From NCBI GenBank assembly GCA_964016885.1, contig OZ024742.1:7502001-7566000 (forward strand): a stretch of 64,000 nt of DNA, read 5' to 3'. Shown in pieces: positions 39,230 through 41,399 of the stretch (positions are counted from its first letter, which is position 1; every line of letters starts with the position of its first letter). Position numbers and translations under genes: made by a program. The notes beneath the pieces were generated by a model. That model searched no databases. It was not told the DNA's origin and saw only the letters and a list, made by a program, of their open reading frames with translations. Source of the DNA: Eledone cirrhosa. Its lineage: Eukaryota.

Positions 39230-41396
39230 TATTAGCGTAAACATTGATGCAATTCAATTCAAGCACTCAACGTACTTTTTCCACATAGGAGTGACGGAGT
39301 AAATATCGAATAAGGAAAAGCGAAGTAGTTTCAGATGTTCAAGACCTTTAATAATAATTGTTTCTACTTTAGGCACAAGGCCAGCAATTACCCAGTGCAT
39401 TACTGGTACTTTATTTTATCGACCCCGTAAGGATGAAAGGCAAAGTCAACCTCGGCGGGATTTGAACTCAGATCGTAAAGGGACGTAACTATGCTGGAAA
39501 TCATGGCGTCCGACCCTCTACCGATACTGCCAAATAATAATGCTGTGATATATATTTCAGTGACGACACTGGCCACACTGTTCTGTGCGCGAGTGTCGTG
39601 TCATCATCAGACAGCTTGTTACATAATAAGGTTATGTTTCCGAGGCAATCCAAATTGGATCGACATGGGAACGGATGAATTGCGTGTTTTGGGGTTTTTC
39701 ATCCGCTCCCTTGTGAGTACCAATTCACCCCCACCGGTCTGCGCAAGCGCATGTCCGAAGGAAGTTGATCATTAGCCACCGCAGATTTCAACGAAATTCG
39801 CTTGGTCAGTTCACCCTCTCAGTCAAAACAATGGCCCACCAATGCCTGTACCATACTTTACTGCTACCCATCACGGCTGTGGTAGTCAGCCGAGAGCCAG
39901 AGGGGATGGGAGAGTGTTAGATTTTACAGGTCATAATACTAGCCCTCACTAAGCGTTGACGGTACGACTGACCATCACCTTATTAGGGAACATAAACTGA
40001 ATTCTAGGTATCATGGTTTTACGTTGGAAGTTAAGAGTGAGAGTTGGAAATAAAAATTAAAATCCTAAATCAAATATCAGAAATTATAAATTAAACAATT
40101 AAGAAATTAACAATTAGAAATTAAAGAATTTAAAAAAATTATTTTCAGGTGATAATTCGGATTGAGGTGAGTAAAAATATAGACTGAAGTGAGTAAATAA
40201 TATAGAGAGAGATGTTTAAGTAATATGTTCTGAGAGGGATTCTAGTGTCACAGTTACTCTTTCCACATATTGAACGACAGTGCCGTAAATTATAACTGAG
40301 GGCAAACTACAGGGCTCTAGGCATTAGTCAATCTAGTACAGTCATAATTTCCATCACATGGAACAAAATCAAAGAAAAACAGACATAAAGTACACAAAGG
40401 AAAGAACAGAACCAATAATGAATAAATGCAAAAACACAGAGTACATATATGCAAAATGATCCATATGATTGTCCATCTGTCCATGTATAGATTGAATTGA
40501 GGGGGCTTCTGTTCAAATGCGATTTGGTGCAGGAAAATAGGGGTTTATCCTATTATTTGTTTCCGCGTATTTATCCTGCCTAAAGTTACTATTATGTCCG
40601 TCCAGTGTAAGGAGTTTCCATCCCCATGGTAGAGAGAGTTTCCGGGGTAGCCTATGGTTGGTTCCTCTCTTCTCCACCATACGGGTACATCGTAAAGCGC
40701 TCAACTAATTGGAGCTAAATTATTAGAGTAAACATTGATGCAATTCAATTCAAGCACTCAACGTACTTTTTCCACATAGGAGTGACGGAGTAAATATCGA
40801 ATAAGGAAAAGCGAAGTAGTTTCAGATGTTCAAGTCCTTTAATAATAATGCTGTGATATATATTTCAGTGACGACACTGGCTACACTGTTCTGTACGCGA
40901 GTGTCGTGTCATCATCAGACAGCTTGTTACATAATAAGGTTAGTGAGGGGTAGTATTATGACCTGTAAAAACTAACACTCTCCCATCCCTTCTGGCTCTC
41001 GGCTGACTGCCACAGCCGTGATGGGTAGCAGTAAAGTATGGTACAGGCATTGGTGGGCCATTGTTTTGGATGACAGGGGGAACTGACTAAGCAAATTTCG
41101 TTGAAATCTGCGGTGGCTAATGGTCAAACTCCTTCGGACACGCGCTTGCGCAGGCCGGTGGGGGTGAATTGGTACTCACAAGGGAGCGGATGAAAAACCC
41201 AAGAACACGCAATTCATCCGTTCCCTTGTCGATCCAATTTGGATTGCCTCGGAAACATAACCTTATTATGTAACAAGCTGTCTGATGATGACACGACACT
41301 CGCGCACAGAACAGTGTGGTCAGTGTCGTCACTAAAATATATCACAGCATTATTATTAAAGGACTTGAACATCTGAAACTACTTCGCTTTTCTTTA

Positions 41397-41399
<3 letters not shown>
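39230..41399. mobile_element. Non-coding HHR element: more-than-unit-length copy of a 1308-nt unit plus an inverted arm (candidate retrozyme)
   Basis: 39230-39634 (minus the SINE) equals 40721-40942. 40940-41399 is an inverted copy of 39308-39952. HHRs at 39542-39615 (-), 40850-40923 (-) and 41277-41348 (+, GAAA to AAAA). Confidence 0.8.
39359..39532 (-). mobile_element. tRNA-SINE nested in the HHR element
   Basis: Flanked by AATAATAAT on both sides; the empty site is visible at 40841-40849. Confidence 0.9.

Follow-up and report, generated by a model that had tools for sequence, protein, structure and literature searches.

The window analysed here, 64,000 nucleotides of the Eledone cirrhosa assembly GCA_964016885.1 (contig OZ024742.1, positions 7,502,001 to 7,566,000), contains an insertion in which two hammerhead ribozyme motifs (HHRs) delimit a 1,308-nt unit and are followed by an inverted arm. 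The question raised by this locus is whether such a structure is the DNA record of a ribozyme-delimited, perhaps circular RNA, or the product of a Penelope-like element (PLE), and which kind of template and priming could have produced its two arms.

Structure of the insertion and its hammerhead motifs

The minus-strand order HHR-A-C-B-HHR-A proposed by the first-pass annotation was borne out by self-BLAST and a coordinate check, the body arm running through unit positions 1–1308 and then 1–222; the head-to-head arm B-HHR-A with a mutated core was also found as described (Table 1). The inverted arm is made up of B, the HHR and 51 nt of A, is about 95% identical to the body arm and overlaps it by 3 nt (40940–40942). 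The layout was thus as annotated except for a 174-nt SINE, missed at first, which interrupts the second unit. This SINE is flanked by a 9-nt ATTATTATT duplication (39533–39541 and 39350–39358) and is missing at the other two HHR copies of the insertion.

Table 1. Features of the 1,308-nt element insertion in the window
Feature	Position in window	Strand	Remarks
Left flank	39191..39229		(TA)n target
Terminal tail, unit 94–222	39230..39358	-	long end, adjoining (TA)n; carries site 210 (39242)
Body arm: one complete unit (1,308 nt), then second HHR, SINE and long tail	39230..40942	-	ends at unit 222
SINE, 174 nt	39359..39532	-	later insertion; same sense as element; between HHR motif 2 and segment A
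Hammerhead motif 2	39542..39615	-	predicted cut after 39547
Segment B, unit 991–1308	39635..39952	-	3' part of unit, upstream of HHR
Repeat unit, unit positions 1–1308	39635..40942	-	position 1 = 40942; 39% GC; no conserved ORF
Internal segment C	39953..40720	-	without detected PLE protein similarity
Segment A, internal copy, unit 94–222	40721..40849	-	holds both family end points, ~144 and 220–222
Hypervariable site 210, internal copy	40733	-	in internal segment A
Hammerhead motif 1	40850..40923	-	type I, minimal helix III; predicted cut after 40855 (AUC)
Inverted arm: unit 991–1308, then 1–144	40940..41399	+	short end
Hammerhead motif 3	41277..41348	+	GAAA core damaged
Right flank	41400..41598		(TC)n, then (TA)n target

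The two ribozymes of the body arm had been annotated as intact and 1308 nt apart. Their predicted cut sites are spaced exactly 1,308 nt, and the core letters and stem I are in place, but the base of stem II is unpaired and the motif has no Rfam match: no hammerhead was found in the motif even at E ≤ 10, and scanning all 64,000 nt at E ≤ 1 gave none either. The active hammerhead form was absent from the predicted minimum-energy folds; like the unpaired stem II base and the missing Rfam match, this speaks against activity. The motif has a 5-bp helix I, a long helix II and a palindromic minimal helix III, a form like that of the PLE min-HHRs of PMC4209133. Core, cut triplet and stem I are kept in 43 of the 57 HHR copies that were aligned. 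At its first pair (10.1–11.1) stem II has U.U in the 1,308-nt family (unpaired at that point in 34/45 aligned rows), which makes for a weak ribozyme base, and G-C in an older relative; the third pair is A.A in the subfamily of the window.

Among 45 copies from three subfamilies and the older relative, 7 of the 11 stem II pairs have changes on both sides. The covariation score was reached by 0/500 shuffles and the number of pairs changed on both sides by 75/500, scores that are inflated by relatedness among the HHR copies; in alignment A1 the family-2 rows are gapped differently and are without the 3' half of stem I. A 16-letter motif gave 1,976 exact matches in the 3.0-Gb assembly, versus 1 for the reversed control. 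Because of this excess and the stem II covariation, we conclude that the hammerhead motif is not a chance match. Dimeric or protein-assisted cleavage is plausible for a motif with this U.U pair and a palindromic loop III, by analogy with the hammerheads of PMC4209133 and PMC11167929.

Size, coding content and relatives of the family

The 1,308-nt element is a dispersed non-coding family. Members of it accounted for 28 of the first 30 motif matches fetched, and the first 100 matches correspond to about 72 insertions, from which a genome total of roughly 1,400 insertions is extrapolated. Subfamilies are about 75–96% identical to the window unit. The termini of older relatives, in which no ORF of their own was found, are 65–81% identical to the 1,308-nt family, and stem I and loop III are common to further families. 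A clan of apparently non-coding families (L111–L135, L228–L257, L064:5510–6419), one of them a 459-nt tandem unit, shares stem I, loop III and tail motifs. The first-pass annotation had seen no convincing ORF, and a wider search agreed: the longest stop-to-stop frame inside segment C is only 75 aa, and the longest ATG ORF of 10 full units is 44–85 aa and is not common to all 10.

The ATT run directly after the ribozyme (unit 94–115; L001–L427; window 39359–39532) is a SINE hot spot. The same SINE was found there in 37 of 227 HHR copies in sense orientation and in 1 in antisense; its truncations differ between copies, and these are therefore independent later insertions.

Seven full units are present in a 12-kb head-to-head array (L176:4821–10000 and L136:1–6896; G000:C1, about 130.882–130.894 Mb). 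Its right arm is an alternating dimer repeat, in which near-identical units differing at 2/1,321 and 9/1,309 positions alternate; its older units are 5–8% apart, and its left and right arms 6.5–7%. These divergences point to the extra units being recent local duplications over older units, and long multimers alone are therefore not proof of rolling-circle copying. The array would be an instance of retrozyme units seeding a local satellite.

Insertion ends and the RNA template

The ends of 147 loci were scored in three sets. Set A comprised 71 insertions from the first 100 motif matches on contig C1, with one older-family match, one chance match and the long array left out; set B comprised 28 loci, namely 27 of the 30 best matches (three repeats dropped) and L061; and set C comprised 48 of 60 loci from two later searches that favoured longer copies (12 repeats dropped). 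The first-pass annotation had proposed a search for other copies with different permutation points. Such variation was found at the 5' ends, which are scattered over the whole unit, but not at the 3' ends, which are fixed at two sites, unit ~144 (short) or 220–222 (long). The short end lies 56 nt and the long end about 133 nt past the predicted cut site, with 76–78 nt between them, and (TA)n or (TC)n(TA)n adjoins nearly all listed 3' ends. Therefore, the copies follow the pattern of PLE target priming and not that of a circle opened at random.

One short and one long end were combined in 74 of the 76 classifiable two-ended insertions (37/38 in set A, 15/16 in set B and 22/22 in set C; p = 7.7e-20 against 50%), and the window insertion fits this rule; the remaining 71 loci were single-armed, interrupted or cut at the fetched edge. 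The only case with two long ends, L208, has arms 13.5% apart and may represent two separate events. An RT/GIY-YIG PLE family of the same genome served as a control. All 20 head-to-head insertions scored in it have one short and one long end, 60 nt apart; its ORF is a family-level trait, looked for in a part of these 20. Given a different fixed end on each side, the genomic copies suggest that the two ends of the DNA break both act as primers on a single RNA. A (TC)n run stands between the short end and (TA)n at 22 of 99 short ends (e.g. window 41400–41418), and none was noted at long ends; it possibly reflects reiterative synthesis at initiation. At L013:1458 a short end directly adjoins sequence that matches the L064 PLE family in its 3' region.

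Arms were compared in 39 insertions in which both carry a ribozyme. The two partners differ by 3.3%, versus a median of 8.4% to other arms, and rare variants are shared between partners in 69/269 cases versus 107/9,672 with other arms. Since partner arms are alike, one RNA template for both arms of an insertion is likely, and post-insertion gene conversion between inverted arms could also have made them alike. The window arms are less clean than most, being 4.9% apart (rank 0.16–0.27); they share a letter present in only 3 of 87 arms. The internal and terminal copies of unit 6–219 show an even 3–4% divergence at 75 loci, as would be expected from the decay of copies of one monomer. At the junction of the two arms the overlap is 0–5 nt in 36 of 59 insertions. 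Either arm can be the longer one, the short-ended arm being so in 21 of 49.

The length of the arms bears on the form of the template. Thirty-three arms exceed one full unit, and 90 of the 98 set A arms reach beyond unit position 1. The reading of the locus as a more-than-unit-length copy of a non-coding ribozyme-delimited RNA, offered by the first-pass annotation, holds in respect of length and coding content; delimitation by the ribozyme found no support, since 5' ends do not cluster at the cut site. If the template were a cut linear monomer, 5' ends should fall at unit 89, where only 2 arms end (at 87–89); as nearly all arms cross the cut site, such a monomer is not the main template. A variant in which the RNA is cut at the first HHR and the enzyme jumps through the repeated tail predicts more divergence in unit 94–219 than in 6–88, and the observed values were 2.8–2.9% versus 3.3%. 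An apparent length ceiling of about 620 nt past the second junction held for 20/20 arms with the long array omitted and was broken by a 771-nt arm of set C and by the array. A cluster of stops at unit 217–228 (6 arms), which would favour a circle, was not clearly repeated in set C, with its bias to longer copies. Taken over these observations, a ligated 1.3-kb circle comes a little short of an even chance as the template, an uncut tandem transcript, which fits as well, would be a serious candidate at slightly lower odds, and a cut linear monomer with template jumps is improbable. The unit is not highly self-paired: compared with shuffles, its folding gave z = -1.05 as a circle (15 shuffles) and z = -0.84 for 993 nt.

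A single base close to the long end behaves differently from its surroundings. When the internal copy of an insertion is compared with its terminal copy, unit position 210, 10–12 nt inside the long end, differs in 29 of 57 cases, versus about 3% at neighbouring sites, and subfamily letters at unit 221 are concordant in 43 of 47. Internal copies have G in 60 and A in 20 cases, terminal copies G in 54 and A in 51. Within one insertion, the letter of the internal copy does not predict that of the terminal copy (GG 20, GA 20, AG 6, AA 4). The site is not a CpG and varies in all subfamilies; both window copies have G. No hypervariable base was found near the long end in 58 tails of the control PLE family. 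The pattern would fit an ambiguously read RNA base or an error-prone step just after initiation, and the flip rate of about 50% would be a specific mark of initiation near the long start site.

Origin of the insertions and relation to Penelope-like elements

We favour, with a probability of about 80%, two-ended priming by a PLE enzyme on one non-coding template as the overall explanation. A PLE protein, probably a dimer, would cleave a (TA)n tract in both strands. On the same RNA, one DNA end would then prime at the short site (unit ~144) and the other at the long site (~220–222). Each cDNA would extend back across the ribozyme and terminate at a random point, and the two would be joined by 0–5 nt of microhomology to give the mirror arm; a single arm would result where only one cDNA was kept. 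A close known counterpart is PAc, the Poseidon element of Anolis, with which it shares AT-rich targets, copying through the uncut HHR and two internal sites, downstream of that HHR, at which the RT starts. According to PMC11167929, PAc cuts and extends both strands, two internal start sites define its tail, it transposes in vitro without HHR cleavage and it is predicted to dimerise. That paper saw no start-site difference between strands and draws no tie between the two sites and the two arms of one insertion, whereas here we infer such a tie from genomic copies. The short/long rule thus links in-vitro RT start sites to the two ends of one break and is testable in the PAc assay.

The insertions have the anatomy of PLEs, with 5' truncation, partial tandems, an inverted arm and a one-ended tail, the same being true of the ORF-bearing control, and the targets of the family are microsatellites or AT-rich. 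The element was thus likely moved by a Penelope-like reverse transcriptase-endonuclease. An ORF for RT and GIY-YIG, as in an autonomous PLE, was not found, no ORF exceeding 85 aa in 10 units. With good confidence we class the element, on its sequence features, as a non-autonomous PLE derivative or large non-LTR retrozyme, and as a large addition to the known class.

EN+ PLEs (Penelope/Poseidon, Neptune and Naiad; PMC3846280, PMC8557442, PMC4209133) share with it the partial tandem, the inverted 5'-truncated arm, the one-ended tail, the microsatellite target and a min-HHR near the 3' end. The 1,308-nt element differs from them in being without an ORF and in its tail of 76–78 nt versus 30–40, and its one-end rule is nearly strict and has been counted (74/76). 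In the consulted parts of PMC8557442 and PMC3846280 the PLE tail is described as often or optionally at one end, with the mechanism left open; the present family is a large natural experiment on how PLE tandem and inverted structures and the one-sided tail arise.

Animal retrozymes are described as non-autonomous PLE derivatives of 51–972 bp in bioRxiv 10.64898/2026.07.22.740005, which, as far as its available text goes, set a period limit of 1,000 and sampled no molluscs. Non-LTR retrozymes (PMC7229834 and the same preprint) resemble the element in the non-coding unit, a type I HHR per repeat, a GC content below 45%, dispersed monomers to multimers and co-occurrence with PLEs. The unit of 1,308 nt stands against the 51–972 bp reported for them (about 150–350 nt in tested ones), its HHR is like the PLE min-HHRs in combining a minimal helix III with a long helix II, most of its insertions are head-to-head or truncated, and the unit is not strongly self-paired. 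Chlamys non-autonomous elements such as MRC1 (PMC8557442) are likewise PLE passengers without coding capacity that have pLTRs and insert as head-to-tail multicopies; as described in the accessible text, their 3' ends are shared with known autonomous families and they have no canonical HHRs, whereas here no partner was found among the loci examined. An account of 235 hammerheads in a squid (PMC6962438) comes, in the text available, without analysis. A literature search, with older PLE reviews and Repbase/Dfam outside its scope, found neither the 1,308-nt family described, nor a short/long pairing rule backed by counts, nor twin priming in PLEs.

The first-pass annotation had also considered an internally deleted PLE with tandem pLTRs; this and its ribozyme-delimited RNA describe one class, and each is right in part. 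Simple derivation by internal deletion from an autonomous PLE that persists in this genome, with C as its decayed UTR or ORF remnant, would account for the PLE-type ends and targets. Non-autonomous PLEs sharing autonomous 3' ends have been reported (PMC8557442; bioRxiv 10.64898/2026.07.22.740005). The PLE insertion anatomy of that proposal stands, but matches to PLE coding or 3' regions were not found. The comparison of the internal region with PLE proteins, suggested as a check, was negative: tblastn of 52 ORF pieces from PLE-containing loci against 10 units gave no match at E ≤ 0.01. The 3' regions of 21 PLE loci gave nothing beyond a 34-nt match at the HHR flank, which belongs to another non-coding repeat, and older relatives with termini 70–77% identical likewise showed no ORF of their own. 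The partner search covered the GIY-YIG family, long-ORF loci, two more PLE families, stem I relatives and 3' regions; none of the about five PLE families examined has a shared HHR and tail. As this is a small share of the >10,000 GIY-YIG candidates, a partner may exist, and it would be compatible with two-ended priming; we regard the internal-deletion origin as doubtful. Two candidate links to PLEs were set aside, L050/L061 being an independent insertion into a PLE locus and the similar HHR in L064 belonging to the separate 459-nt repeat.

The mirror arm could alternatively stem from fold-back self-priming or from endonuclease resolution of one intermediate, as proposed in the form of self-priming on an antisense template in PMC3846280 and of a tail from EN-mediated resolution in PMC8557442. 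Either would also predict arms of one sequence, so that arm similarity is common ground. However, the arms start at unrelated unit positions and either may be longer, the junction overlaps are small with no palindromic centre, and both end points match the two-start-site behaviour of PAc in vitro (PMC11167929), which together make these routes unlikely. Less probable still is a viroid-like circular RNA that was captured in DNA after reverse transcription beginning at random positions, the permuted-multimer idea of the first-pass annotation. Arms longer than one unit exist, the repeats of an insertion resemble copies made from a single monomer, and animal retrozymes of 200–350 nt form circles (PMC7229834; for small retrozymes see also PMC7761336); against it, the 3' ends are fixed at two sites, the same end rule applies in an ORF-bearing PLE, and the circular unit folds no better than shuffles, unlike the highly paired retrozyme circles of PMC7761336.

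Two-ended priming, our preferred reading, may be extended to a more speculative form, which we hold only tentatively. The template would be a 1.3-kb ribozyme-closed circular RNA, a PLE parasite persisting through many subfamilies; two RTs, one for each end of the DNA break, would copy at the same time and follow each other round one circle from starts 76–78 nt apart, and unit 210, just inside the long start site, would each time be read ambiguously as G or A, like a modified or edited base. If this were true, the inverted arms, one-sided tail and partial tandems of PLEs would be explained by one mechanism.

Further repeats surround the insertion. The 522-nt HHR array of the window, which the first-pass annotation had called unrelated in sequence and similar in architecture, bears no real resemblance to the 1,308-nt unit, the best match being 63% identity over 79 AT-rich nt, and at 51464–53726 it too has one short and one long end into (TA)n; its ends lie about 132 and 250 nt from stem I. 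A broken PLE copy (32603–37503, with ORF pieces at 34162–36342) from a family abundant in the genome lies between two inverted HHRs of another type. Other PLE fragments are found at 19942–21479, 22418–22751 and 42400–42680, including inverted termini of the control family, which has 5,554 exact motif matches. An ORF-bearing PLE family with a U3-A8 core-variant hammerhead (L063, L064:5097–5140, L073, L077 and window 50016–50518) appears Neptune-like by its cysteine linker and has two tail ends of its own, about 68 nt apart. The regions 1–7604, 44703–47815, 56001–59413 and 60753–61916 hold a 21-nt satellite, an extended (CAC)n tract and a pair of LINE-like ORF remnants, which may be RTE-like and R4-like. 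At 17021–19370, two 654-nt arms that are 100% complementary stand 1,042 nt apart.
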